From assembly GCA_900234795.1 (NCBI GenBank), contig LT962688.1, positions 570,001 to 602,000 on the forward strand: 32,000 nt of DNA, written 5' to 3'. The notes below the pieces were generated by a model. The model worked only from the letters and a program-made list of their open reading frames with translations, ran no database searches and was not told the DNA's origin. The position numbers were made by a program, and so were the translations under genes. The DNA comes from Methylorubrum extorquens. GTDB taxonomy: Bacteria; Pseudomonadota; Alphaproteobacteria; Rhizobiales; Beijerinckiaceae. Shown here piece after piece: positions 6,705 through 23,081 of the stretch (its first letter is position 1; every line of letters begins with the position of its first letter).

Positions 6705-7556
<852 letters not shown>

Positions 7557-7602
7557 CGGACCGCTGCGGCGCCCCAGTTAAGCGGCTCCGACCCGCCTCC
7601 GC

Positions 7603-8595
7603 GTGACCGATCCCATGCAGACAAAGAAACTCGGCCGCACCGGCCTCGACATCTCGCCCCTCTGCCTCGGCTGCATGACCTACGGCGTGCCGGAGCGGGG
7701 ACCGCATCCGTGGACCCTGCGGGAGGAGGAGAGCCGGCCGCTGATCAAGCGGGCGCTCGATCTCGGTATCAACTTCTTCGACACCGCGAACTACTACTCG
7801 GACGGCACCTCCGAGGAGATCGTCGGCCGCGCTCTCAAGGACTACGCCGACCGCGACAGCATCGTACTGGCCACCAAGGTCTACTACCCGCAGAAGAACC
7901 AGCCCAATGCCGGCGGCCTCTCGCGCAAGGCGATCTTTTCCGCGATCGACGCTTCACTGAAGCGGCTCGGCACCGATTACGTCGATCTCTACCAGATCCA
8001 TCGCTGGGACTACGCCACGCCGATCGAGGTGACGCTGGAGGCGCTGCACGACGTCGTGAAGGCGGGCAAGGCCCGCTACATCGGGGCCTCGTCGATGTTC
8101 GCGTGGCAGTTCGCCAAGGCGCTCTACACCGCGGACCTGAACGGCTGGACGCGGTTCGCGACGATGCAGAACCACCTCAACCTGCTGCACCGCGAGGAGG
8201 AGCGGGAGATGATCCCGCTCTGCGCCGACCAGGGCATCCCGCTCCTGCCCTGGAGCCCGCTCGCCCGCGGCCGGCTCACCCGCGACTTCGACGCGGGCAG
8301 CGCCCGGCAGGAAAGCGATCTCGTGGGCAAGAACCTCTACGACGCCACGGTCGAGGCCGACCGGCAGGTGGTCGAGGCGGTGGCCGACGTCGCGCGCGAC
8401 CGCGGCGTGCCTCGGGCGCAGGTGGCGCTCGCCTGGGTGATCCAGAAGCGGGGCGTGGCCGCCCCGATCATCGGCGCCTCGAAGCCGGGGCACCTCGACG
8501 ACGCGGCGGCGGCCCTCGACCTCGAATTGATGCCGGACGAGATCACCCGGCTCGAAGCCCCTTACGTTCCGCACGCCGTGGTCGGGTTCCAATGA
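7603..8595 (+). CDS. Aldo/keto reductase family oxidoreductase
   Basis: AKR signature: LGRTGLDISPLCLGCMTYG, INFFDTANYYSDGTSEEIVGRAL, YVDLYQIHRWD, GASSMFAWQF. The track start is the GTG at 7603. The ATG at 7615 (MQTKKLGRTGL) is an equally likely start. Confidence 0.9.
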   Translation: MTDPMQTKKLGRTGLDISPLCLGCMTYGVPERGPHPWTLREEESRPLIKRALDLGINFFDTANYYSDGTSEEIVGRALKDYADRDSIVLATKVYYPQKNQPNAGGLSRKAIFSAIDASLKRLGTDYVDLYQIHRWDYATPIEVTLEALHDVVKAGKARYIGASSMFAWQFAKALYTADLNGWTRFATMQNHLNLLHREEEREMIPLCADQGIPLLPWSPLARGRLTRDFDAGSARQESDLVGKNLYDATVEADRQVVEAVADVARDRGVPRAQVALAWVIQKRGVAAPIIGASKPGHLDDAAAALDLELMPDEITRLEAPYVPHAVVGFQ

Positions 8596-9274: not shown

Positions 9275-10495
9275 GTGCTCCTCGAAACGCTCCTCGCCGT
9301 GACGATGCTGCTGCCGCGGATCGAGCCCGCGCTCGACACGGCTCGGGCGCGCCTGCCGCCTCTCCCCCGCGCGGCCGAGGCGGCCCCGGCGCCCGCGCCG
9401 AGCTTCAGCCTCGTGGCGCGGGCCGTCTCGAACTGGCGGGAACAGGCGGGCGAGAACCTCGCGCCGGGCTCGCTCGCCTTCGTCGTCCGGCACGCGGCGA
9501 CGGAGCCGGGCTTCGTCGCCCGCTGTGTGCGGCTCAACAATTACTGGTGCATCAAACAGGCGCGGTGGAGCGGCGAGCTCGGCGGCGACGCGGAGGGCCA
9601 TACCGGCTTCGCGACCGCCGCCGACGGGGCGGATGCGGCGGTGCAGCTCCTGCGCCGCTACCAGCGTGATTACGGACGCCGCTCGGCACTCGCCATCGTG
9701 CGCCGCTGGGCGCCCGCCGAGTGCGGCGTGGCCCGCCCCGTCGCTGCCGCGCCCGTCGGCGGAAAGCCGAGGCCGCCGGCACGCCAAGCCGCCGGGCCCG
9801 CCGTGTCGACGACGACCGCACCACGGGGCATCGGCGGAACGTTGCGCGCCCGCTTCCTCGCGCGGCATGGGCGGGGCGGGGTCGCGCGGGCCGCGCCGAG
9901 CGCCGCCGCGGGGCTGCGGGTGCAACCTTGGTCGGCCCGTGCGCGGCTCGCCGGGCATCCCGGCCGGGCGCCCCGTGCCGTGGCAGGATCGACCGTCTCC
10001 GTGCCGAGGCCGGCCGCCGACATCGCGACGGGCCTGACCGAGGCACCGAAGATCGCGGCCAAGTCTCCGCCGGCGGTCAACCCGGCCCGTACTCTCGTCG
10101 CCTCCGGCGCGGCCAATCCTGCCGCCCTGCTGGCGCCCGACCGGCTCACGGCGGAGGCGGCAGCACTGCCCTCGATCGCCGCCTCGCTGCCGAAGGGCAG
10201 CCTGCTCGATCTCAGCCTCCCGGCCCCTGTCTGCGCCAACGACGAGACGCGCATCCGCAACTACGCCGCGCGGATCGCCGACAGCGTCGGCCTCAAGCCC
10301 GACGACGATCTGCGCCTGTTCCGCGACGACGGCCGGCCGAGCGACAACCTCCTGCCGGTGCTGCTGGCGATGTCCTCGGTCGAACTCGGTACGCTGCACG
10401 CCTCGAAGGCACTGGTGAGCGCGGCGATCGAGCGGCTCGAGGCGCGCCTCTCCGGAACCGCCTCGTCGGAAGCACGGTCGAATTCCGCACTCTAG
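9275..10495 (+). CDS. Hypothetical protein: N-terminal Cys-containing domain, Pro/Ala/Arg-rich linker, C-terminal helical domain
   Basis: 406 aa with high GC3 in this frame. The start is the GTG at 9275, or alternatively the ATG at 9305. Distinctive stretch: CVRLNNYWCIKQARWSGELGGDAEGHTGF. No family recognised. Confidence 0.55.
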   Translation: MLLETLLAVTMLLPRIEPALDTARARLPPLPRAAEAAPAPAPSFSLVARAVSNWREQAGENLAPGSLAFVVRHAATEPGFVARCVRLNNYWCIKQARWSGELGGDAEGHTGFATAADGADAAVQLLRRYQRDYGRRSALAIVRRWAPAECGVARPVAAAPVGGKPRPPARQAAGPAVSTTTAPRGIGGTLRARFLARHGRGGVARAAPSAAAGLRVQPWSARARLAGHPGRAPRAVAGSTVSVPRPAADIATGLTEAPKIAAKSPPAVNPARTLVASGAANPAALLAPDRLTAEAAALPSIAASLPKGSLLDLSLPAPVCANDETRIRNYAARIADSVGLKPDDDLRLFRDDGRPSDNLLPVLLAMSSVELGTLHASKALVSAAIERLEARLSGTASSEARSNSAL

Positions 10496-10822
10496 GACTA
10501 CGCCTCGAAGAGCACCGACCGGCCTGCGCGATGAAGCGCGCAGAGTGGAGAAGCACTACTCCCAAGGAGGCAGATGATCGCCGCCGTCCCGCTGGTATGG
10601 TCGTAGTAACGTCTCTCGGGGGCTTGCGGAAAACCGGTCGAGACACCGGTCCTCACACTCCCGGCGACGCGATGACCCTCCTGCTCGTCACGCGAAGGCA
10701 GGTGTGCCTCATCGGACGCCCGATCGCCGAGAGCGCCCGGCTCCAACCCGGCGGCGCGGCTGGCGTCCGGTGCGGGATGCCCGACCTCCGCCGATGAGCC
10801 GCACGGCCAGACGAGGATCGGG

Positions 10823-13800
10823 ATGTCCTGCATCGACGGCGAGGCTGTTTTCCAGTCGATCCCAGCCCGTTACGCCGCGCCCGGTTCGGACGGGGAGGGG
10901 CGGCCGGTCGTCCCCCTCGCCACGCCGACGCCGGAGGAACTGCAGGAGGTCTTCCGGCATCAGCTCGATGCCGTGTGCCGCGTGGTGGAGGAGCAGCTTC
11001 GCACGCTCGCGCTGACCTTCACAGCCGCGCGGGTGAGCCGGCCCGAGCCGCAATCATCGCCGGCTCTGCCGATGGCGGATCGCGGGGCAGAGCGGCCGCT
11101 GACCGACGGGGAGGCCGAGATCTGGCTCGCCGCGCAGTTCGGTGCCGACGCCAATGCCGCGATGACCGAGATCGTCACCCTGCGGCTCGACGGCCCGCTC
11201 GACGCCGAGCGGCTTCTCTCCGTCGTGAGAGCGGTGCTCGGCCGCCACGACGCCCTGCGCAGCCGCTTTTCCCCGAGCGGCGAGACCGTGCGGATCGATC
11301 CCGCGGGCCTCGTGCCGGTGCGATGGATCGATCTCGCGGGCGACTCCGATCCGGAGGCTGCTCTGGCGGCACATCTTCACGCACAAGCGGGCCTCTCGTT
11401 CGATCCCGTCGCCGGCCCGGTGGCGCAGGCCGACCTCGTTCGCCTCGGCGAGCGGCGTCACGTCCTCGTCCTCTCGGCCCACCACATCGCCTGCGACGGC
11501 TGGTCCTTCGCGGTCCTGGCCGACGCGATCGCGAGCGCCTACCGCGCCGCGCCGGAGGAGTTGGCGCCGGCCCCGCAGACCACGGGCTGTGCTCCATCGG
11601 AGGCGGAGGCGAGCCGGGCGCTGGATTACTGGGCCGGGCTCTATGCGAGCTTGCCCGAGCCGCTCGACCTGCCGGCCGACCATCCGCGGCCGAAGCTGCG
11701 CGGCTTTGCCGGCGACACCCGAAGCGCCGCTCTGCCTCCGCCGCTCGTCGCCGCGCTCAAAGCGCTGGCGGCGCGCCAGGGGCAGACGCTGAACGCCACG
11801 CTGCTCGCGGCCTTTCAAGTGCTCCTTGCCCGGCTCTCGGGGCAGGACGATCTCGTCGTCGGCGTGCCGATGGCGGGCCAGCCGCGCCGCGGCGAGCCGG
11901 ACCTCGTCGGGCACCACGCCGATTTCCTGCCGCTGCGGGCCCGGTTCGACCCGGACGAACCCTTCGCTGCCCAACTCGCCCGCACCGGCGCGGCCCTGGC
12001 CGAGGCCGCCGCTCACGCCGATTGCACCCTGGGGCGGCTGCTGCGCCATCTCGACCGGCCGCACGATCCGGCGCGCCCGCCGCTGGCGCAGGTGCAGTTC
12101 AACCTCCAGCGTTTCGCCGACGCCATCGATTTCGGGGCGGGCCTGCGCGGCACGCTCGCACCCGCGCCGAAGCGCTTCTCGACGTTCGAACTCACCGTCA
12201 GTCTCACCGAAACGTCCGACGGGCTGACCGTTGAGGCCACCTACAACCGCGCCCTGTTCGATCCGGCGACGATCGAGCGCTGGATCGGGCACTACCTCAC
12301 CCTGCTCGAGCATCTCGCCCGCGATCCCGCGCAGCCGGTCGGGCGCGTTCCGCTGCTTGATGCGGCCGAGCGGCAGACCATGCTGGTGGCCTGGAACGCG
12401 ACCGAGACAGCCCATCCGCTCAGGGTCGGGGCGATGCGGGCCTTCAGGCTCCACGCCCGGCGCGACCCGGACCGGATCGCGATCCGTTTCGGCGAAGAGA
12501 CCGTCTCCTACGGCGCCCTCGACCGCTGGGCCGATCGCGTCGCCGCGGCGTTGCAGGGAAGCGCTCTGCCCGAGGGGGCCCGCGTCGGCCTGCTCATGCG
12601 CCGCTCGCCCGGCCTCGTCGCGGCGATGCTCGGCGCTTTGCGCGCCGGCATCCCTTACGTCCCGCTCGACCCGGCCATGCCGCCTGCCCGCCGCGCGGGA
12701 ATCGTCGCCGATGCCGGGATCGGCGCGATGCTCACGCTTGCGGCCGACCGCGCGCTCCTGCCGGAGGGCCCCCGGATCATCGAGGTCGATCGTCTCGACG
12801 GGCCGGCGCCGACCCGCTTCCCGCGCGTGCCGGCGGAGCGGGCCGCCTACCTGATCTACACGTCGAGCACGACCGGCGCGCCGAAGGGCGTCGAGGTGCT
12901 GCATCGCGGCCTTTCGAACCTGCTGTTCTCGATGGCGCGGGCACCTGGGATCGCACGCGACGACCGGCTGCTGGCGGTGACGACGATCACCTTCGACATC
13001 GCCGGGCTCGAATTGCTGCTGCCGCTGATCCGCGGCGCCCAGATCGTGCTCGCCTCGGCCGAGGAAGCGCGCGACGGCCACGCCCTCCTCGCCCGCCTGG
13101 AACGGGACGAGGCCACCATGCTCCAGGCGACGCCGATGACGTGGCGGCTCCTGCTGGAGGCGGGTTTCCGCTCCCGTCCCGGCTTCAAGATGCTGTGCGG
13201 CGGCGAAGCGCTTCCGCTCGATTTAGCCCGGCGCCTCACCGAGGGCGGAGGCGAACTCTGGAACCTCTACGGGCCGACGGAGACGACGATCTGGTCCTCG
13301 GCCGCGCGGGTCGATCCGGGGGAGGAGACGGTCACGGTCGGGCGGCCGATCGACAACACCAGCCTGTTCATCCTCGACGCGCAGGGCGAGCCGGTGCCGG
13401 TCGGGGTCACGGGTGAATTGCTGATCGGCGGGATCGGGCTCGCCCGCGGCTATCTCGGACGGCCGGACCTGACGCAGCGCAGCTTCACCGCGAGTACGCT
13501 ACCGGAATGCGCCGGGGCGCAACTCTACCGGACCGGCGACCGCGCCCGCTACCGGCCGGACGGACGCGTCGAGATCCTGGGACGGGCCGACCACCAGATC
13601 AAGCTGCGCGGCTACCGGATCGAGCCCGCTGAGATCGAGGCGGTGCTGCTGCGCCAGACCGGGCTGCACGCCGTCGTGGTGCTGCGCCCTGACGCGGCGG
13701 GCGAGGATCGCCTCGTCTGCTACTTCGTGCGCCCCGAGGGCGAGGCGGCGCCCACCCTGCGCAATCTGCGCGCCGCGCTCGCCCGCGAACTCCCCGATTA

Positions 13801-14284
13801 CATGATCCCCTCAGAATGGGTCCGGCTGTCGGCCCTGCCGCTGACGGCGAGCGGCAAGGTCGATCGCCGGGCGCTGCCCGCTCCCGAGGCCCGGCCCACC
13901 GGTTCGGCCGAGCCGGCCGCCGCGATCAAGCTTCCCCTCAAGCCCGCTCCGGTCCCGACCTCCGACGACGGCCTCGAGACCACCCTCGCGGCGATCTGGC
14001 GGGAGGTGCTGGGGCTCGCCAGTGTGGAGCGGGACGACGACCTGATCGCGTTGGGTGCAGATTCGCTCAGCGTGTTCCGCATCGTCGCGCGGGCGCGGCG
14101 GGAGAACCTGCCGCTCGGGGCCGGCGATCTGTTTCAGGAACGCACCATCGCCCGGGTCGCGGCCCTGCTGCACGGGCGCCTCGGGGAAGGGCGCGAAACA
14201 CCGGCCGCCGCGCGCGCGCCGATCCCGTCGATCCGGCGCCCGAGGCCCGCCGACGCCGACCGCGCCGCGGTCGGTCAGGCGTGA
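10823..14284 (+). CDS. Non-ribosomal peptide synthetase, single module C-A-T (A domain predicted to activate glycine)
   Basis: - 1153 aa; GAGGA Shine-Dalgarno at 10814-10818.
- C domain: PLTDGEAEIWLAAQ, GRHDALRSRF, HHIACDG (11480-11500).
- A domain: LIYTSSTTGAPKG (A3), FDIAGLEL (A4), NLYGPTETT (A5), GELLIGGIGLARGY (A7), YRTGDRARYRPDGRVEILGRADHQIKLRGYRIE (A8), GK (Lys codon 13856-13858, A10).
- T domain: LGADSLS (Ser codon 14063-14065). Confidence 0.95.
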   Translation: MSCIDGEAVFQSIPARYAAPGSDGEGRPVVPLATPTPEELQEVFRHQLDAVCRVVEEQLRTLALTFTAARVSRPEPQSSPALPMADRGAERPLTDGEAEIWLAAQFGADANAAMTEIVTLRLDGPLDAERLLSVVRAVLGRHDALRSRFSPSGETVRIDPAGLVPVRWIDLAGDSDPEAALAAHLHAQAGLSFDPVAGPVAQADLVRLGERRHVLVLSAHHIACDGWSFAVLADAIASAYRAAPEELAPAPQTTGCAPSEAEASRALDYWAGLYASLPEPLDLPADHPRPKLRGFAGDTRSAALPPPLVAALKALAARQGQTLNATLLAAFQVLLARLSGQDDLVVGVPMAGQPRRGEPDLVGHHADFLPLRARFDPDEPFAAQLARTGAALAEAAAHADCTLGRLLRHLDRPHDPARPPLAQVQFNLQRFADAIDFGAGLRGTLAPAPKRFSTFELTVSLTETSDGLTVEATYNRALFDPATIERWIGHYLTLLEHLARDPAQPVGRVPLLDAAERQTMLVAWNATETAHPLRVGAMRAFRLHARRDPDRIAIRFGEETVSYGALDRWADRVAAALQGSALPEGARVGLLMRRSPGLVAAMLGALRAGIPYVPLDPAMPPARRAGIVADAGIGAMLTLAADRALLPEGPRIIEVDRLDGPAPTRFPRVPAERAAYLIYTSSTTGAPKGVEVLHRGLSNLLFSMARAPGIARDDRLLAVTTITFDIAGLELLLPLIRGAQIVLASAEEARDGHALLARLERDEATMLQATPMTWRLLLEAGFRSRPGFKMLCGGEALPLDLARRLTEGGGELWNLYGPTETTIWSSAARVDPGEETVTVGRPIDNTSLFILDAQGEPVPVGVTGELLIGGIGLARGYLGRPDLTQRSFTASTLPECAGAQLYRTGDRARYRPDGRVEILGRADHQIKLRGYRIEPAEIEAVLLRQTGLHAVVVLRPDAAGEDRLVCYFVRPEGEAAPTLRNLRAALARELPDYMIPSEWVRLSALPLTASGKVDRRALPAPEARPTGSAEPAAAIKLPLKPAPVPTSDDGLETTLAAIWREVLGLASVERDDDLIALGADSLSVFRIVARARRENLPLGAGDLFQERTIARVAALLHGRLGEGRETPAAARAPIPSIRRPRPADADRAAVGQA

Positions 14285-14295
14285 GGGCGGGCGGG

Positions 14296-16866
14296 ATGCG
14301 GCATTTCACGCAGGAATCGCCGGCCATGACCGGCGAGGTTCACGGCGGCGACGCCTTCACGGCCCGCTGCTCCCACAGCCAGACGCGGTTCTGGCTGCTC
14401 GATCAGTTGAGGCCGGGCGATCCGAGCCTGCACGTCGCCGCCCGCTGGCGCATCGCCGGACGGCTCGACGCCGAGATCCTCACCCGTGCCTTCCGCCTCT
14501 TGCTTGACCGGCACGAGGCTTTGCGCACGTCGATCGTCGGGGAGGGCGGGCGACCGGTGCAGCGGATCGCCGGAACGGTGCCGCTGGCCTTCTCCGAAAT
14601 CGACCTCTCCGGCCTGCCCGGCGACCGCCTCGGCGAGGCGCGCGCGATCGCCGAGTCGGAGGCCGGGAAGCCCTTCGATCTGGCCCGCGCGCCGCTCGTG
14701 CGGGTGACGCTGCTGCGGCTCGGGCGCGGCGATTCCCTGCTGCTCGTCACCGCCCATCACAGCATCTGCGACGGCTGGTCGATGGTGGTGCTGGCCCGCG
14801 AGTTCGTCGCGATCTACGGCGCCCTGATCCGGGGACAGGTACCGGCTCTGGCGCCTGCGGCCCTGCACTATGCCGACTTCGCGGAATGGGAGATCTCCCC
14901 GGCCCTCGCCGAGGCGGCGGAACGCGACCTCGCCTTCTGGGCACGCTCGTTGCGCGATCTCATCCCGTTCGAGCTGCCGCCGGACCATCCCCGCCGCCCC
15001 GGCCGGGAGCGCCGCTTCGCCGCCGAGACCCGCCCGCTTTCCGCCGATCTCGGCGCGCGCATGGAAGCGTACGCGCGGGCGCAGGGCGCCACCCCCTTCG
15101 TCCTCGCCTGCACCATCCTGTTCGGGCTCCTGAGCGCGCGCACCGGGCGCGGCGACATCGCCATCGGCACGCAGGTGCTGGGGCGCGACGAGATCGAGCT
15201 GGAAGGCGTCGTCGGCACCTTTGTGAACACGCTGGTGCTTCGGACCCGTGTCGAAGCGGAGCAGAGCTTCGCCGAGCGGCTGGCGGCGACCCGCCGGACG
15301 ATCCTCGACGCCTGCGATCACGCGCTCGCCCCCTTCGACCGGGTGGTGCAGGCGCTGGCGCCCTGCCGCGACGGGCTGCGGCCGCCGCTGGTCTCGGCCA
15401 ACGTCCGGATGCGGCCGGCGCCCCAGGCGACGCCGTCCGGCGGGTCCTCAGTCGGGGAGCCGGCCCCGATCCGCCTCGTCGATCTCGACTACGCCGCCAC
15501 CGGCAGCTTTTTCGACCTCGATCTCGAACTCGCGCCGGGCGAGGCCGGCTGGCGCCTGATCTGCGAGTACGATGCGGGCCTCTACGCGGCGGAGACCGTC
15601 GCCGGCCTGCTCGCCGATTTCGAGCAGGCGGCTCGCGCGGCGGTCGGGGCGCGGCTGCCTGATCCGGCCCCTCTGGGAAGGGGCGGGGGAGGGATCGCGG
15701 GCGAGCGTGAACAGGCATCCCGAGAAGAGGGTCAGCCGGAGGGGGAGGAGACGGCCGCGCGGGTGACGCCGGTTGCGGCACCTGCCCCTGAGACGCCGCC
15801 TCCCTCGGCGGGCGAGGCGGCGGGCGAACTTCTGCCGACGATACGCACGATCTGGCGGGAGATGCTCGGCCGCCCCGACCTGTCCGACGACGAGGATTTC
15901 TTTGCGGCGGGCGGGCACTCGCTGCTGGCCGCCCGCGTCGTCGCGCGGATCGAGGCGGCGACGGGCCGAACCGTTCCGCTCTGGTCGTTCTTCGAGGCGG
16001 GCACGGTCGCACGGCTCTGCGCCTTCCTCAGCGGCGAGGCGGCGGCGGGCGTGCGGCACCGCGCGCTTCAGGAGCCGACGGCGCAGGCGCGGCCCGGCTT
16101 CACCGCGATCCACCACGCCGCGGCCGATCAGGAACTCTACCGGCCCCTGTCCGAGGCCCTGGGGGCGGACCATCCCTTCGCGACGCTGCAACTGGAAAGC
16201 CGGGTTCCGCCCCACGAGGAAACCCTGGAGCGGCTGGCCGGCGCCTATCGCGAGGCGATCGATGCCGCGCAGCCGCAGGGGCCGATCCGCCTCGTCGGGT
16301 TCTGTCGCTCGGGCGTTCTCGCCTTCGAGATCGCCCGGCAGTTCGCGCAGGGCAGCCGGGACGTCGCCCTCGTCGTCCTGATCGATTGCTGGGAGCCCGG
16401 CTATATCAGGCGCCTCAAGCCGCTCGCGCGCATGCGGGTGATGGTGGCCTACCGGCGCGGCCGGCTCGCCGCGCTCATCCGCCACGTCCGCCGCGACGGC
16501 ATCGGCTACCTCGGCTCGCGGGCCCATCTCTGGTTCCGCTCGCATCGCGCCTGGCGCGGGTTGCGGCGCGCCCTGAACCGGGTGGGGCTCGCCACCCCGA
16601 GCCCGGAGGACGCGTTCTGGCAAGTGACCGACGAACTCGACGCGCTCGCCCTGGCCTACGAGCCGCGCCCCCATCCCGGGCCGGTGCTGATCGTCCGCAG
16701 CGAGAGTGTTCCGGTCGGCCCTGCGCTCGACCCGATGCTCGGCTGGCGCGCCTATGCCGAGAACTGCGAAAGCGTGAGCGTTCCGGGCTTCGGCCACGAG
16801 GGCGCGTTCTCTCCCGCCGGCTGCCGGGTGATGGCCGCCAAGATCAGCCTGATGGCGTGCCGGTGA
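14296..16866 (+). CDS. Non-ribosomal peptide synthetase, terminal module C-T-TE lacking an adenylation domain; the TE has Cys at the nucleophile position
   Basis: - Start at the ATG at 14296 (or 14326), 12 nt after the upstream stop. The 160 codons of the track ORF before that overlap the previous gene.
- C domain: SHSQTRFWLLDQL, DRHEALRTS, HHSICDG (14755-14775), YADFAEWE, VGTFVNTLVLR.
- An acidic/Pro-rich linker of about 90 aa follows.
- T domain: FFAAGGHSLLA (Ser codon 15919-15921).
- TE: LVGFCRSGVLAFEIA (Cys codon 16303-16305), VVLIDCW, VPGFGHEG. Confidence 0.92.
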   Translation: MRHFTQESPAMTGEVHGGDAFTARCSHSQTRFWLLDQLRPGDPSLHVAARWRIAGRLDAEILTRAFRLLLDRHEALRTSIVGEGGRPVQRIAGTVPLAFSEIDLSGLPGDRLGEARAIAESEAGKPFDLARAPLVRVTLLRLGRGDSLLLVTAHHSICDGWSMVVLAREFVAIYGALIRGQVPALAPAALHYADFAEWEISPALAEAAERDLAFWARSLRDLIPFELPPDHPRRPGRERRFAAETRPLSADLGARMEAYARAQGATPFVLACTILFGLLSARTGRGDIAIGTQVLGRDEIELEGVVGTFVNTLVLRTRVEAEQSFAERLAATRRTILDACDHALAPFDRVVQALAPCRDGLRPPLVSANVRMRPAPQATPSGGSSVGEPAPIRLVDLDYAATGSFFDLDLELAPGEAGWRLICEYDAGLYAAETVAGLLADFEQAARAAVGARLPDPAPLGRGGGGIAGEREQASREEGQPEGEETAARVTPVAAPAPETPPPSAGEAAGELLPTIRTIWREMLGRPDLSDDEDFFAAGGHSLLAARVVARIEAATGRTVPLWSFFEAGTVARLCAFLSGEAAAGVRHRALQEPTAQARPGFTAIHHAAADQELYRPLSEALGADHPFATLQLESRVPPHEETLERLAGAYREAIDAAQPQGPIRLVGFCRSGVLAFEIARQFAQGSRDVALVVLIDCWEPGYIRRLKPLARMRVMVAYRRGRLAALIRHVRRDGIGYLGSRAHLWFRSHRAWRGLRRALNRVGLATPSPEDAFWQVTDELDALALAYEPRPHPGPVLIVRSESVPVGPALDPMLGWRAYAENCESVSVPGFGHEGAFSPAGCRVMAAKISLMACR

Positions 16867-17313: not shown

Positions 17314-18486
17314 TCAGGCGATGGCGCGCCCGTCCCGCATCCGTGCGGCGAGCGCCGAGCGATAGACCGTCAGCAGCGTGGCGGTCGTCGCCGTCTCGGT
17401 CCAGTCGCGCAGGTAGGCGGCACGGGCGGCCGCGCCCATCCGCCGGGCTTCCTCCGGCCGGGCTCGCAACCGCTCGATGGCCTGGGCGAGGTCGGCCGGA
17501 TCGCCCGGCGTCACCAGCAGGCCCGTCACGCCGTCCTCGACGAGACCGGCGAGCGCACCGATCCGTGAGGCGATGACCGGGGTGCCCGCCGCATAGGCCT
17601 CGGCCACGACCATCGGCAACCCCTCGTACCAGAGCGAGGGCACGACGAGGGCTACCGCCCGGCCCATCCGCGCCCGCATCTCCGCGCGGGGCAGGGCGCC
17701 GAGCAGGTTGAGCCCGGGCGCCCCCTCCAGCATCTCCCGCAGCGGCCCTTCGCCCGCGACATCGACCGGTGCGGTAAGGAGCGCGCCGGCTCCCTTCAGG
17801 ATCTCGACGCCCTTCTCGGGGCTGAGGCGGCCGGCGAACAGGATGCCCTCGCGCAGGCCCTCACTCGGCGGCCCCGGATCGGGCAGGCCGTTGGGCTTCA
17901 CGAAGATGCGCTGCGCCGGCAATCCCGCCGCGATGAAGCGACCGCGGGCGAACTCGGTCAGCGCGACGAAGGCATCGACGTCCCGCGTCCACGTGCCGGT
18001 GCGGCGGTGCCGGTCGATCATCCGCGCCACGGCAAACGTGCCGAGCCGCGAGCCGCGGTAGCAACCGTGGCGCACCGCCGCGTAGGAGGAGCCGGTGAGG
18101 CAGGTCTCGCAGGGCGCGCCGTCGCGCATCAGCATGGCGCCTGCGCAGGCGAGGCGGAAATTGTGCAGCGTCTGCACGGTCACCGGGCCGAGCGCCCGCA
18201 CCACCCCATGCATGGCGGGCGAGACCAGCGGAAAGGTGTTGTGGGCGTGGACTACGTCCGGCCGGAAGCGCTCCACTGCCGCGACGACGCGGGCGATGCC
18301 GCGGGGCGCATGCGGCGCCTCGAACGCCGTGCGCAGGCGATCCAGCGGCGTGCGGATGTCGTCGTTGTGGAAGGCCAGGGTCTCGACCGTGCAGCCGGCC
18401 TCGGCCAGCGCCGCGGCCTCATGCTCCACCACCGCGTCCTCGCCGCCCCGGATCTGATAGTGGTTGTGGACGATGAGGACGCGCAA
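17314..18486 (-). CDS. Glycosyltransferase family 4 (GT-B, retaining, EX7E type)
   Basis: Trimmed to the TTG at 18486, which has a perfect AAGGAG Shine-Dalgarno (18494-18499) 7 nt upstream. N-terminus LRVLIVHNHYQIRGGED; C-terminal EGLPMVVAEAYAAGTPVIASRIGALAGLVEDGVTGLLV (EX7E). Confidence 0.85.
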   Translation of the reverse strand: MRVLIVHNHYQIRGGEDAVVEHEAAALAEAGCTVETLAFHNDDIRTPLDRLRTAFEAPHAPRGIARVVAAVERFRPDVVHAHNTFPLVSPAMHGVVRALGPVTVQTLHNFRLACAGAMLMRDGAPCETCLTGSSYAAVRHGCYRGSRLGTFAVARMIDRHRRTGTWTRDVDAFVALTEFARGRFIAAGLPAQRIFVKPNGLPDPGPPSEGLREGILFAGRLSPEKGVEILKGAGALLTAPVDVAGEGPLREMLEGAPGLNLLGALPRAEMRARMGRAVALVVPSLWYEGLPMVVAEAYAAGTPVIASRIGALAGLVEDGVTGLLVTPGDPADLAQAIERLRARPEEARRMGAAARAAYLRDWTETATTATLLTVYRSALAARMRDGRAIA

Positions 18487-18497
18487 CAGAGGGCTCC

Positions 18498-19373
18498 TTA
18501 CGACCGGCGCGGCTCGGGCTGGCGCGCGATCTTCCACAGGAAGACGGGCGCCATGACGAGATAGCGCCGCCACAGCCGCCGGGGCTCGCTCAGGAGCCGG
18601 TGCAGCCATTCGAGGGCGAGCACCTGCATGAGTTTCGGCGCACGCTTCACCGCCCCGGAATGGAAATCGAAGGCGGCGCCGACACCGATCAGCACCATGC
18701 CCGGCAAACGATCGAGGTGATCGTTCATCCAGATATCCTGCTTGGGCGTCGACATGCCGACCCAGACGATGTGCGGCTCGGCCGTCTTAATCGCATCGGT
18801 GAGCCGCGCGTCGAGATCGGGCGCGACGGTGCCGAAGGGCGGGCAAGCGAGGCCGCAGACCTCGGTACCGGGATATTTGCGGGCGAAATTCGACGCGACC
18901 TGCTCCGCCACGCCCTCCTTGCCGCCGTAGAGATAGTGGCGGATTCCGGTGTTCTGCGTGGCCGCGAACATCTCCTCCATCAGCGAGGGGCCCGGCACGC
19001 GGCCGGTGCCGTGCGCGCGGAAGAACCGGCTGATGATCGTGAGCGGCGCGCCGTCCGGTGTGATCATGCTGGCCCGCTCGTGCGCGGCCCTCAGATCGGG
19101 CTGGTCCTGGGCGCACATGATGCCGTGCACGTCGCGCACGCAGATCATGCTGGTGCGCCGCGCCCGCGCCCAGCCGATGACGGTGCGGACAGCGAACGGC
19201 ATGTCGATGACGCTCACCGGCACGCCGAGGATGCGGGTCGCCGGGAGACGATGCGCCGCCGGCCCGTCCGCCTGGACGAGGTAGGGATCGTTCCGGTTGA
19301 TCCGGAGCGCGTAGGGCCCGGAAGCCGGGATGGCCACGGCATCCATGGGCAGGCTTCCCTCGATCTCAGCCAT
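18498..19373 (-). CDS. WecG/TagA/CpsF-family glycosyltransferase (GT26)
   Basis: Motifs ITPDGAPL, GMSTPKQDIWM, GVGAAFDFHSGAVKRAPKLMQVLALEWLHRLLSEPRRLWRRYL. The ATG at 19373 has AGGAG 10 nt upstream and overlaps the fcl stop (ATGGCTGA). The stop TAA at 18498-18500 sits inside the Shine-Dalgarno of the next gene. Confidence 0.88.
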   Translation of the reverse strand: MAEIEGSLPMDAVAIPASGPYALRINRNDPYLVQADGPAAHRLPATRILGVPVSVIDMPFAVRTVIGWARARRTSMICVRDVHGIMCAQDQPDLRAAHERASMITPDGAPLTIISRFFRAHGTGRVPGPSLMEEMFAATQNTGIRHYLYGGKEGVAEQVASNFARKYPGTEVCGLACPPFGTVAPDLDARLTDAIKTAEPHIVWVGMSTPKQDIWMNDHLDRLPGMVLIGVGAAFDFHSGAVKRAPKLMQVLALEWLHRLLSEPRRLWRRYLVMAPVFLWKIARQPEPRRS

Positions 19374-20304
19374 GGGCGACATGCTCCTGGAACCACGCAT
19401 AGGTCGCGGCGATGCCGTCCCGCAGCGGCACCTTCGGCGCCCAGCCGAGGCCGCGCAGCTTGTCCGCCGACATCAGCTTGCGCGGGGTGCCGTCGGGCTT
19501 GCTCGGATCACGCACGATCTCGCCCTCGAACCCGACGACCTCGCAGACGAGGCGGGTCAGGTCGTAGATCGGGATGTCCTCGCCCGAGCCGACATTGACG
19601 TGCTCGGCCTCCGAATAGGTCTTCATCAGGTGCACGCAGGCGTCGGCGCAGTCATCGACGTGCAGGAACTCGCGGCGCGGCGATCCGGTGCCCCAGATCA
19701 CCATCTCCCGCGCGCCGGAGCGCTTGGCCTCGTGCGCCTTGCGGATCAGGGCCGGCAGGACGTGGCTGGAATTGAGGTCGAAATTATCGCCCGGCCCGTA
19801 GAGGTTGGTCGGCATGGCCGAGATGAAGTCGCGGCCGTGCTGCTGGCGATAGGCCTGGGCGAGCTTGATCCCGGCGATCTTGGCGACCGCGTACCACTCG
19901 TTGGTCGGCTCCAGCGAGCCGGTGAGCAGGCTCGCTTCGACGATCGGCTGTTCGGCGAATTTCGGGTAGATGCAGCTCGACCCGAGGAACAACAGCTTGC
20001 CGACATCCTCGCGGAACGCCGCCTCGATGACGTTGGCCTCGATCATCAGGTTCTCGTAGAGGAAGTCGGCCGGGTAGGTCGCGTTGGCCAGGATCCCGCC
20101 GACCTTGGCCGCGGCCAGGAACACCGCATCCGGCCGCCGGTCCCGCATCCAGGCGCGCACGGCGGCCTGATCGCACAGGTCGAGTTCCGCGCGGCTGGCG
20201 GTGAGGACCTCGCAATCCTCACCCTTCAAACGCCGTACCAGGGCGCTGCCGACGAGGCCGCGATGTCCGGCGACGAAGACGGTCTTGCCCGCCAAGCTGT
20301 GCAT
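19366..20304 (-). CDS. fcl: GDP-L-fucose synthase (GDP-4-keto-6-deoxy-D-mannose 3,5-epimerase/4-reductase)
   Basis: 312 aa from the ATG at 20304 (MHSLAGKTVFVAGHRGLVGSA). Motifs GSSCIYPK, EWYAVAKIAG, PTNLYGPGDNF, HVLPALIRK, DGTPRKL. A strong family match. Confidence 0.9.
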   Translation of the reverse strand: MHSLAGKTVFVAGHRGLVGSALVRRLKGEDCEVLTASRAELDLCDQAAVRAWMRDRRPDAVFLAAAKVGGILANATYPADFLYENLMIEANVIEAAFREDVGKLLFLGSSCIYPKFAEQPIVEASLLTGSLEPTNEWYAVAKIAGIKLAQAYRQQHGRDFISAMPTNLYGPGDNFDLNSSHVLPALIRKAHEAKRSGAREMVIWGTGSPRREFLHVDDCADACVHLMKTYSEAEHVNVGSGEDIPIYDLTRLVCEVVGFEGEIVRDPSKPDGTPRKLMSADKLRGLGWAPKVPLRDGIAATYAWFQEHVAHG

Positions 20305-20314
20305 CGGTCGGCCC

Positions 20315-21286
20315 CTACAGAAGCGGGTTGGAATCGGTCGGCGCCGGGTTCTCGCGGTACCACGCGACCGTGCGCTCGATGCCCTGGACCAGGGAAACGC
20401 TCGGCGCGTAGCCGATCGCCTGCATCTTGCCGATGTCGGGGCAGCGGCGCGGCGTCGCCCCGGCGGCGGCCGGTCCGGCAATCAGCTCGACGCGGGTGCC
20501 GAGCGCCTCCGCGGTGATCCGGGCGAGGTCGCGGATCGCGACCTCCTCCATCGAGCCGATGTGGTAGACGTTCATGCTCTCGCCATCGCGCCACATCCGG
20601 ACGATGCCGTCGACGACGTCGCTGACGTAGCAGAAGGCGCGGGTCTCGCTGCCGTCGCCCTGAAGCGTGATCGATCCGCCGTCACCGGCCGCGACGATCT
20701 TCTCGATGAGCTGCGGCACGACATGCTTCCAGCCCATATCCGGCCCGTAGATGTTGTGCGGGCGGAAGACCTGGACCTTGCGCAACTTGTCGCGGCAATA
20801 GTTGAAGGCGATCAGCTCCGAGATCAGCTTCGACCCGCCATAGGAATAGCGCGGGTTGAGCGAGTCGGGGATCACCATCTCGATGGTCTCGTCCGTCGGC
20901 ACCACGCGCGGGGTCTGGTAGACCTCCGCCGAGGAGGCGACGACGAGATCGGGCACACCGGCCTCGATGCAGGCTTCTGAGACGGCAAGCGCGCCGCGCA
21001 CGCCGACATCGAGCACGAGCTGCGGCTGCGTGTAGAAGTTCTCCGTACCGTTGACGGCGGCCAGATGAAACACGCACTCGACGCCCCGGAGCGCCTCGAC
21101 CAGCGCATCCTTGTCGCGCACGTCGAGCGTCACGCGCTCGATCGCACGCTGGGCATTGGCGAGCCGCGAGGCCTGTCCGCGGATGTAGTTGTCGATCGCG
21201 ACGACCTCGTGCCCCTCGGCCAGGAGCGCGCGGGTGAGGTGGGCGCCGATGAATCCGCCCGCCCCGGTGACAGCCAGTCTGCTCAT
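20315..21286 (-). CDS. NAD-dependent epimerase/dehydratase-family SDR (UDP-glucuronate decarboxylase/epimerase-like)
   Basis: 323 aa. VTGAGGFIGAHL (GxxGxxG), SSAEVY, YSYGGSK (YxxxK). The start ATG at 21286 overlaps the upstream stop (ATGA). Confidence 0.85.
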   Translation of the reverse strand: MSRLAVTGAGGFIGAHLTRALLAEGHEVVAIDNYIRGQASRLANAQRAIERVTLDVRDKDALVEALRGVECVFHLAAVNGTENFYTQPQLVLDVGVRGALAVSEACIEAGVPDLVVASSAEVYQTPRVVPTDETIEMVIPDSLNPRYSYGGSKLISELIAFNYCRDKLRKVQVFRPHNIYGPDMGWKHVVPQLIEKIVAAGDGGSITLQGDGSETRAFCYVSDVVDGIVRMWRDGESMNVYHIGSMEEVAIRDLARITAEALGTRVELIAGPAAAGATPRRCPDIGKMQAIGYAPSVSLVQGIERTVAWYRENPAPTDSNPLL

Positions 21287-22620
21287 TGAAACTTACCCAC
21301 GAGGTTGCCCACGGTGACGTAGCGATTTTCCAGAACCTCCGCCGGCATCTCGCTGAGGTTGTTCCAGTAATCGTAGACGAAGGCGTCGTCCGACATCGTA
21401 CCGATGATCGTTTCCAGATCGATCTTCGAATATTCCGGATGGTTGTTGGCGATCACGAGCACATCGGCACCCTCGCAGGCGGCCGCGAGGCTGTCGTAGG
21501 GCGTCAGCCCCGACGAGATGGCCCGGATGTGATCCATCGGCACCACGCCGTCATAGACGCGGATTTCCGAAAACTGCTCGGTCGCCATCATCTCGCGGAT
21601 GACGTGGAGCGACATCGACCCGCGCAGGTCGTCGGTCTCCGGGCGGCCCTTGAAGGCAAGGCCGGCGACCACCGCCTTGAACGGTCCGGCGCGGCGGGCC
21701 CGCAGCCGCTCGACGAGGCTGCCCACCGTTTCGGCCGGCTGGCGCTCGTTGACGAGGCGGGAGGCCGCGGTGATCTCGAGGTTCACGCCCTGGCCCGAGA
21801 CCGACGAGAGCAGGATGTGCGGATCCTTCTCCAGGCAGGGCCCGCCGACGAGGCCCGGCGCGGCGACATTGGTGCGGGTGTAGCCGAGTTTGCCGTAGCG
21901 GATGACGTCGTTGGCGTTGATGCCGAGCGCGTCGCAGGCCCGCGCCACCTCGTTGGCGAAGGCGAAGTGGACGTCGCGCGAGGTGTTGTCGACGAGCTTG
22001 ATCATCTCCGCCGTCTCCGGGCTCGCGACCCGGACGATGGTGTGGGTCAGGCGGCTGAACAGGGCGGCCGCCGCGTCGGACGCGTCCGGCGTCTCACCGC
22101 CAACGATCTGCGGCAGGTTGATGAGTTCGCGCATCGCGTCGCCTTCGAGCGTCCGCTCGGGGCACATCGCGAGGTGGTAGGGCGTGCCGGTGCGGTCGAG
22201 GATCGGCTTGACCACGCCCGTCGTCGTGCCGATCCGCACGGTCGAGCGCAGGATCACCGTGGCGCCCTCGGTGAAGTGCTCGGCCACCTCGCGGGTCGCC
22301 TCTTCAATCATGTCGAGACGCGGCTCGTGCGAGCCGGGATAGAGCGGGGTGCCGACCGTGATGATGTAGTACTCGGCCCGCGGCACATCGTGCGTCGTGG
22401 TGCTCGCGACGAAGCGGCCCTTCTTCACGACGTCGGCGAGGGCGGCCTGAAGCCCCACCTCGGCGAAATGCGGCATGCCGGCATTGGTCTTTTCGACAAC
22501 GTCGGCCCGCTTCTCGATGCCGTAGACCTGGACACCGCGGCGGGCCAGGGCGACGGACAGGGTCAGGCCGACATAACCGAGACCAATGATGACGACGTTG
22601 GGAGCTTTTCTGGCGTCCAT
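21283..22620 (-). CDS. Nucleotide-sugar dehydrogenase (UDP-glucose/GDP-mannose dehydrogenase family)
   Basis: Trimmed to the ATG at 22620 (MDARKAPNVVIIGLGYVGLTLS, GxGxxG). Catalytic Cys motif GGPCLEKDP. C-terminal UDP-binding-type region GLAFKGRPETDDLRGS. First gene of the five-gene minus-strand operon. Confidence 0.88.
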   Translation of the reverse strand: MDARKAPNVVIIGLGYVGLTLSVALARRGVQVYGIEKRADVVEKTNAGMPHFAEVGLQAALADVVKKGRFVASTTTHDVPRAEYYIITVGTPLYPGSHEPRLDMIEEATREVAEHFTEGATVILRSTVRIGTTTGVVKPILDRTGTPYHLAMCPERTLEGDAMRELINLPQIVGGETPDASDAAAALFSRLTHTIVRVASPETAEMIKLVDNTSRDVHFAFANEVARACDALGINANDVIRYGKLGYTRTNVAAPGLVGGPCLEKDPHILLSSVSGQGVNLEITAASRLVNERQPAETVGSLVERLRARRAGPFKAVVAGLAFKGRPETDDLRGSMSLHVIREMMATEQFSEIRVYDGVVPMDHIRAISSGLTPYDSLAAACEGADVLVIANNHPEYSKIDLETIIGTMSDDAFVYDYWNNLSEMPAEVLENRYVTVGNLVGKFQ

Positions 22621-22735
22621 AACTTGGTCCCGTCTGCGATCGATCGTCGGAATCTCTGACCCGATTGGGAAACCGGCACGGCGCAAGCGCTCGCCCGTCA
22701 CCGCTCCACCCCGGGACGGCCGAAACCGTCGGGAT

Positions 22736-22753
22736 TGAACTGTGACCAGTTCA
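22736..22753. promoter_or_regulatory. Inverted repeat TGAACTG-N4-CAGTTCA about 115 bp upstream of the glycan operon start (candidate operator)
   Basis: Perfect 7-bp arms read directly from the sequence. A second palindrome, TTGACGGTCAA, lies at 22847-22857. There is no functional evidence. Confidence 0.2.
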
Positions 22754-23081
22754 GCAAAGCCTGTGCCTAAGGAAATTCGTATCAAACCGGGACCAACGGC
22801 CCGTCAGCGGACACTCAGAGTTCGTCGCGCGAAGATTTCGGGACTTTTGACGGTCAACGGACGGAGTCCGGCGGGTGGAACAATTGATTCTTGTCGGGTC
22901 GGCCGGGGCGGGGGATCGCGATCCGTTCACCCGTCGAGCTGTTTCAATCCCGCGGCACCCGCGCGGCCCATAGCCTCAGCCCGCCCCGGTGCCGCCCAAG
23001 CAACGCTTCGCGCCGCGCTTCGTTCGTCCTGCCGGAGACGGTGGGGCGCAGCGGGCGCCGCCGGCTTGGAGGGAGACGCGG

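Follow-up and report, generated by a model that had tools for sequence, protein, structure and literature searches.

In a 32,000-nucleotide stretch of Methylorubrum extorquens DNA (assembly GCA_900234795.1, contig LT962688.1, positions 570,001 to 602,000 of the forward strand; this whole stretch is the window, and its own numbering is used below), the cysteine Cys670 of a nonribosomal peptide synthetase (NRPS) termination protein is very probably the catalytic nucleophile of a functional type I thioesterase (TE). The TE closes the second protein, NRPS2, of a two-gene NRPS pair, and sequence comparisons together with a predicted structure point to an otherwise canonical triad, which would place the enzyme with the AB3403-like thioesterases and not with the ObiF/SulM type. 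Thioesterases with Cys in place of Ser have been studied because the thioester changes which nucleophiles release the product, with beta-lactones, beta-lactams and N-acyl indoles as outcomes. The present case adds no new chemistry; it gives a tractable entry into a large clade of glycine-associated TEs in which the Cys is obligate. NRPS clusters in pink methylotrophs have yet to be characterised (PMC13192835).

Cysteine at the nucleophile elbow of the NRPS2 thioesterase

NRPS2 (14296..16866; all features of the pair lie on the plus strand) is a protein of 856 amino acids without an adenylation (A) domain. Its Pfam domains are, in order, Condensation, PP-binding and Thioesterase (C2-T2-TE), the TE standing C-terminally, right behind the carrier (T) domain. 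The TE occupies 16078..16863 (262 amino acids, TE residues 1-262 corresponding to protein residues 595-856) and is matched by PF00975 at E 3.4e-15 over the N-terminal half of the profile only. Its nucleophile-elbow motif L-V-G-F-C-R-S-G (16291..16314; CTC GTC GGG TTC TGT CGC TCG GGC) reads as the original prediction had given it, with the inferred nucleophile, Cys670 or TE residue 76, encoded by TGT at 16303..16305. The further claim that this Cys takes the usual nucleophile position is backed both by alignment to solved structures and by modelling. When the TE sequence was searched against all PDB chains, 34 hits were obtained at E<=1, the best being AB3403 (4ZXH/4ZXI, E 8e-7), whose GGWCFGG aligns Cys-to-Cys with GFCRSG. 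In this column, 7R0X and 7CRN have their catalytic Ser and 7DXO the position at which Ser was engineered to Ala. The AlphaFold2 model of the TE, built on 52 homologues (pLDDT 91.8, pTM 0.90), exhibits an alpha/beta-hydrolase core with an inserted helical lid (helices 109-193), and its elbow runs from strand 70-75 through Cys76 into helix 77-91, putting the Cys at the strand-helix turn.

The wider family was collected by an exhaustive HMMER search with the TE through 1.84 billion cluster representatives, which returned 13,993 matches at E<=1e-3 and only 4 at E<=1e-30; a word-indexed protein search with the same TE had found 3 matches only, and it was the exhaustive search that revealed the family. 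The resulting alignment contains 151 TE segments, namely the query, the motif-covering segments from the top-150 representatives and the three word-indexed matches. The G-x-Nuc-x-G frame of the elbow is represented in the query by G-F-C-R-S-G, the second Gly being replaced by Ser, and across the family this position is occupied by A, G or S (consensus G-[WLFY]-C-x-[AGS]-G; 48 of the 126 Cys members have A at position 78, 45 have G and 15 have S).

That the true nucleophile is Ser672 or some other residue, with the Cys merely incidental, is extremely improbable. A Ser does sit two residues downstream of the Cys, which is what speaks for this alternative; however, it lies inside helix 77-91 of the model and off the turn, it is replaced by Thr in Chelatococcus and mostly by Ala or Gly in the family, its use as nucleophile would turn the frame into C-R-S-G-V, and the catalytic residue of four solved structures aligns to the Cys instead.

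Conservation of the Cys was assessed with a scan of one genome per species by the motifs [VM]LIDCW[AE]P and G[EF]GHEGAF, the Cys motif itself not being used, so that the outcome is independent of the search because the loci were retrieved through other motifs. The scan yielded 27 loci, comprising 7 from Methylobacterium/Methylorubrum (76-95% identity) and about 20 from Bosea, Chelatococcus and other Hyphomicrobiales (39-45%), and G-F-C-R-[ST]-G was present in all 27, each of these species-level relatives keeping the Cys. The catalytic codon is TGC in the eight other Methylobacterium/Methylorubrum orthologues as against TGT in the window, and the codons adjoining it also differ synonymously among orthologues. 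Judged by these comparisons, the Cys is neither a chance occurrence nor a sequencing error. TGT is unique to the window among the nine orthologues; the third codon positions of this gene are about 83% GC.

The remaining triad residues, which the original prediction had described as retained in VVLIDCW and GFGHEG, are indeed present and conserved as Asp697 (GAT, 16384..16386; TE residue 103, in LIDCW) and His834 (CAC, 16795..16797; TE residue 240, in GFGHEG), the corresponding columns holding Asp in 137/151 and His in 136/151 aligned family members. In the model, D103 directly follows strand 96-102, the canonical 'position I' of the triad Asp behind the sixth strand, and aligns with the Asp of AB3403 MIDTR, while H240 is situated in the loop after strand 227-235. 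Foldseek puts the model among type I TEs, its top matches being the TE domains of NocB, Pks13, AB3403 and EntF, with E values from 1e-12 to 1e-9, and 7CRN is matched as well.

The lid region (TE residues 106-193; 16393..16656) consists of four long, Arg-rich helices. This lid of about 88 residues contains 17 Arg and carries a net charge of +11, set on an acidic core. A basic lid is found family-wide, with a median charge of +9 in Cys and Ser members alike, and it may indicate anionic or membrane-bound substrates.

An all-cysteine clade and its glycine modules

Average-linkage clustering separated the 151 segments into two clusters, one of 91 that includes the query and a sister cluster of 60. 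The nucleophile column contains Cys in 126 and Ser in 25 members, in a top-150 sample that is ranked by similarity to the Cys-bearing query and does not measure the frequency of Cys among the roughly 14,000 matches. Within the query cluster every member has Cys (91/91), typically accompanied by the motifs GWCxxG, D[ATS]WA and PGDH, whereas 35 Cys and 25 Ser members are intermixed in the sister cluster, where nearest neighbours of about 50% identity swap the two residues. The two residues thus interchange in the sister cluster and the Cys is fixed in the query's own clade, and the view of Cys-TEs as rare does not extend to a clade in which the Cys is invariant. Named members include Methylobacterium marchantiae, Methylocella, Lichenicoccus, Belnapia, Vitreimonas and a Steroidobacteraceae metagenome-assembled genome, most of them encoding single C-A-T-TE proteins of about 1320-1370 amino acids. 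By sequence clustering, the query TE belongs to a large, mostly alphaproteobacterial clade with a fixed Cys.

The terminal module had been described as lacking an A domain and as fed by glycine, which agrees with the pair as annotated here, its single A domain (NRPS1, 12446-13858) having the glycine-type code DILQLGLIWK, as deduced from the core motifs and an alignment. DILQLGMIWK and DILQLGVI are reported glycine codes (PMC12283262, PMC5466765); a literature search for the exact code DILQLGLIWK returned no papers, and a shorter string gave support for glycine. Glycine-type codes were detected in 18 of the 28 proteins of the query's all-Cys cluster in which an A domain precedes the TE, as against 1/21 in the sister cluster and 0/10 among Ser-TE proteins, and the A domain of AB3403 has been crystallised with glycine bound (4ZXI; PMC10510592). 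Because 18/28 clade codes are of the glycine type and the AB3403 A domain binds glycine, the pairing of a glycine module with a Cys-TE is, by these codes, the family norm and a common state, not an oddity. The combination of Cys-TE, A-less module and glycine, previously called unusual, recurs also in its A-less form: C-T-TE(Cys) proteins without an A domain occur elsewhere (P0024, 953 amino acids; P0031, 851; P0143, 850) and align full-length with NRPS2 at 32-39% identity.

The two-gene pair, its relatives and its surroundings

NRPS1 (10823..14284; 1153 amino acids) has a C-A-T architecture (Pfam Condensation, AMP-binding, PP-binding), with the condensation domain C1 at 11120-12385 (Pfam) and the carrier T1 at 13982-14170 (Pfam PP-binding), whose Ser1081 is encoded at 14063-14065. 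In NRPS2, the C2 domain (14368..15633; PF00668, E 2e-71) has an intact HHSICDG with its second His at 14758-14760, and the T2 carrier (15838..16029; PF00550) contains GGHSL with the phosphopantetheine Ser542 at 15919-15921. The longest open reading frame (ORF) around the TE motif extends from 13816 to 16866 with the Cys codon in frame; the true start of NRPS2 is most likely the ATG at 14296 (MRHFTQE...), giving 856 amino acids, because the 97%-identical, 856-residue database protein P0004 shares that start. The stop codon of NRPS1 is separated from the ATG of NRPS2 by 8-11 nucleotides in 8/8 orthologues examined. Both protein ends that face this gap are conserved, ...RPRPAD.DRAAVGQA in the C-terminal tail of NRPS1 and MRHFTQE[ST]PA at the N-terminus of NRPS2 (window 14240-14330 and its equivalents in loci L008-L014), and the spacer of 8-11 nucleotides between them is G-rich. 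This arrangement suggests translational coupling, and the tail and N-terminus are candidate docking elements. An apparent NRPS1-NRPS2 fusion in M. podarium, seen as a long stop-free frame, was rejected, the stop and ATG being conserved there as well.

Differential constraint was observed along the pair when ratios of nonsynonymous to synonymous substitution rates (dN/dS) were computed by the Nei-Gojobori method for the window in comparison with four or five orthologues. The values are 0.17-0.32 for the TE, 0.18-0.29 for C2 and 0.10-0.22 for T2, the most constrained part of NRPS2, and 0.09-0.30 for the NRPS1 domains (C1, A, T1), compared with 0.33-0.94 for the C-T linker. The HHxxxDG motifs of both C domains and both carrier Ser residues are conserved in the orthologues, HHSICDG being kept across 9 of them, and the ORFs of the pair are intact in 9 Methylobacterium/Methylorubrum genomes. 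On these ratios, the whole gene pair is under purifying selection.

More complete relatives of the pair were found in two settings. In Bosea, the gene order is FAAL-ACP; KS-AT-ACP-aminotransferase-C-A(Gly)-T; C-TE; phosphopantetheinyl transferase (PPTase), the C-A-T part being 51-52% identical to the window's NRPS1 and the C domain of the C-TE 45% identical to C2. At locus L038, a protein of 3256 amino acids (FAAL-ACP-KS-AT-ACP-aminotransferase-C-A-T), with a single amino-acid A domain of glycine-type motif, precedes P0024, and a PAF-AH-like hydrolase and a PPTase come after it. Based on these similarities, the window pair corresponds to the tail end of the Bosea/L038 pathway type. A PAF-acetylhydrolase/PETase-like alpha/beta hydrolase lies right after the C-T-TE(Cys) gene both at L038 (12915-14057) and on the contig of P0143, two unrelated contigs, and no counterpart of this hydrolase was found in the window. 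Remnants of FAAL, KS, AT, aminotransferase or PPTase were sought in the window without any significant result, all Methylobacterium/Methylorubrum orthologues likewise lack the lipid-initiation part, and NRPS1 residues 1-90 displayed no significant similarity to the Bosea protein.

The closest solved relatives of both C1 and C2 are the C domains of Txo1/Txo2. A starter-type assignment of C1 was considered and rejected, the lipo-initiation C domains of CDA, RzmA and surfactin matching much more weakly. Because the C domains are nearest to Txo1/Txo2 and far from starter C domains, the donor of C1 is probably a carrier-bound species encoded elsewhere. Since one amino-acid A domain stands against two peptidyl carriers, the simplest reading would be loading of both by the Gly A domain, giving X-Gly-Gly. 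A recent origin of T2 by duplication of T1 would be a point in favour of shared loading, and the two are only 38% identical.

Given these relatives, the TE or the whole line might be regarded as a non-functional, decaying remnant of a larger lipopeptide pathway in which the Cys is a tolerated substitution, since the FAAL-ACP-KS-AT-ACP-aminotransferase part and the PPTase of the Bosea and L038 clusters are missing, and the metagenomic fragment P0001 exhibits a TE half fused to an unrelated N-terminus. Decay is nevertheless highly improbable in view of the intact ORFs, the full set of catalytic motifs (two HHxxxDG, two carrier Ser, Cys/Asp/His), dN/dS values of 0.09-0.32 in every domain against those of the linkers, and a Cys that stays fixed even across relatives only about 40% identical. 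P0001 itself (243 amino acids, on an ENA contig of 1409 base pairs) has 143 C-terminal residues that are 76% identical to the C-terminal half of the TE, an N-terminus resembling a short-chain dehydrogenase, and no Cys-bearing half; from its sequence it would be either a rearranged remnant or an assembly chimera.

The pair is set among housekeeping genes. Upstream of it lie genes for MraY/MurD, a KefB-like transporter, an AAA ATPase, an aldo-keto reductase, a SixA-like phosphatase and a hypothetical protein of 406 amino acids (9275-10495, plus strand), which has no Pfam or NCBIfam match. The last of these always stands just upstream of NRPS1 in Methylobacterium/Methylorubrum (75-98% identity), with an intergenic region of about 330 nucleotides (10496-10822) between the two genes in the window. 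In close relatives (loci L001-L003), the AAA ATPase and aldo-keto reductase genes are separated by a ParD/ParE toxin-antitoxin pair (L001:2619-3261), and no such insertion is present at window 7556-7603. Downstream, on the minus strand, follow GT4, WecG/TagA, two epimerase/dehydratases and UDP-glucose dehydrogenase, and, further on, Mrp antiporter genes and a radical SAM gene. In M. thiocyanatum (L011, 10783-13719), GT4, WecG, the second epimerase and UDP-glucose dehydrogenase (window 17314-22785) are absent and the NRPS pair is kept. The link to polysaccharide genes is a weak lead, as their adjacency says little because synteny is conserved across the genus. The NCBIfam scan of the window gave generic NRPS matches only, below cut-off, and the Rfam and promoter/terminator scans gave nothing relevant.

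Release chemistry and comparison with known systems

In the proposed mechanism, a glycine-containing chain on T2 would be passed to Cys670 by transthioesterification, giving an acyl-S-enzyme from which the chain would be released by water or by an amine, the amine attacking more readily than it would a serine ester. By analogy with other Cys-TEs, the thioester intermediate would favour release by nitrogen nucleophiles. The enzyme could be a transferase or small-ring cyclase and not a hydrolase, handing a glycyl-terminated chain to an amine, either intramolecularly to the beta-amino group of a fatty acid (a 7- or 10-membered lactam) or intermolecularly to an envelope glycan or lipid. Among characterised Cys-TEs, the thioester intermediates of BulbE, the polymyxin TE and SulM favour poor or amine nucleophiles (PMC11792885), the complete relatives would make a beta-amino fatty acyl-Gly chain, the acyl-transferring Pks13 TE is among the top Foldseek matches, several clade members adjoin polysaccharide genes, and the lid is strongly basic. 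On the other side, the region is syntenic genus-wide, most sugar genes are absent from M. thiocyanatum, which retains the NRPS, P0015 is without such neighbours, and the likeness to Pks13 is at fold level only (TM about 0.65, 20-22% identity), so that this proposal is judged decidedly unlikely.

A broader formulation, which is speculative and also on the unlikely side, treats the whole obligate-Cys clade as an aminolysing release catalyst for glycine-terminated short lipopeptides. The complete pathways would then close beta-amino-fatty-acyl-Gly(-Gly) into a 7- or 10-membered lactam, in the truncated Methylobacterium version another amine or an envelope acceptor would receive a glycyl or diglycyl unit, and in the carrier-less Bosea C-TE the thioester on the TE Cys might replace the carrier-bound intermediate.

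For the assignment of Cys670 as nucleophile of a functional, AB3403-like TE, several points weigh on the other side, together with the query-ranked sampling of the family mentioned above. The closest subclade, the Bosea C-TE (751 amino acids; L004:10001-12256, L015-L034), has no T domain, and a simple linear model leaves this carrier-less protein unexplained; neither an initiation module nor a PPTase nor a second A domain is located within the window; and the product is undefined even for AB3403 (PMC10510592).

The original prediction had named ObiF and SulM as Cys-TEs, as is published (PMC6668435, PMC11298585), and had drawn from them a lead towards strained rings. On such a reading, closure of a four-membered ring would depend on the Cys thioester. 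Both enzymes share with the window TE the Cys nucleophile, the type I NRPS TE class and an acyl-thioester intermediate, both of these precedents require the Cys (PMC6668435, PMC11298585), and T2 might conceivably take a beta-functionalised residue loaded in trans. In ObiF (beta-lactone) and SulM (beta-lactam), however, the triad Asp has moved to position II, ObiF1 having Gly at position I and SulM displaying a Gln-Cys-Asn motif and an Arg-lined, positively charged pocket, and the C-terminal residue of their chains bears a beta-OH or beta-sulfamate nucleophile (PMC6668435, PMC11298585). In the window TE the Asp stands at position I and the Cys is flanked as Phe-Cys-Arg (family [WLFY]-C-[VLAFIR]). 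ObiF1 (6N8E) and SulM are missing both from its 34 PDB sequence hits (E<=1) and from its 50 best Foldseek matches, and the window line, like the complete relatives, has a single A domain, coded for glycine, which has no side-chain nucleophile. The strained-ring lead is consequently not upheld and such chemistry is very unlikely here; an elbow Cys alone is no marker of strained-ring products, and the Asp position and flanking motif are needed too. By its sequence and model, the window TE fits the AB3403-like type with a canonical triad and fails the defining features of the strained-ring enzymes.

Other published Cys-TEs are BulbE (bulbiferamide; indole N-acylation) and the polymyxin TE (macrolactam), in both of which the thioester aids attack by nitrogen nucleophiles, and BulbE has a unique 'second lid' (PMC11792885). 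BulbE is reported to be closest in fold to the Pks13 TE, which likewise ranks high among the Foldseek matches of the window TE. BulbE and the polymyxin TE cyclise long peptides through internal nucleophiles, whereas the window line is short, with two carriers and one Gly A domain.

Upstream of these release steps, the lipo-initiation of mycosubtilin and iturin (MycA) proceeds through FAAL-ACP-KS-aminotransferase-C-A-T. Bosea L004 and L038 follow this type of logic upstream of a homologous C-A(Gly)-T, and the window is without it. A-less modules loaded by the A domain of another module are exemplified by yersiniabactin HMWP2/HMWP1 and by the last module of SyrE. NRPS2 shares with these systems a C-T(-TE) module without its own A domain, the loading enzyme being known there and inferred for T2 here.

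The nearest solved counterpart remains AB3403 (ABBFA_003403) of Acinetobacter baumannii, which combines a nucleophilic Cys and a position I Asp (PMC11298585) and shares both with the window TE, along with a partner A domain for glycine, predicted from its code in the window line; no other solved Cys-TE has this canonical Asp. The two lines differ in architecture, AB3403 being a single C-A-T-TE protein and the window line being divided between a C-A-T and a C-T-TE protein, with one more C domain and carrier and no second A domain; the same division occurs with P0024, P0031 and P0143. AB3403 is also distant, scoring about 30 bits where the top 150 relatives, outside which it falls, reach 80 bits or more, and its motifs GGWCFGG and IDT resemble those of the sister cluster, where Cys and Ser swap. 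The Methylorubrum pair is small and genetically tractable, and resolving one such member would assign a function to the clade and possibly to AB3403.

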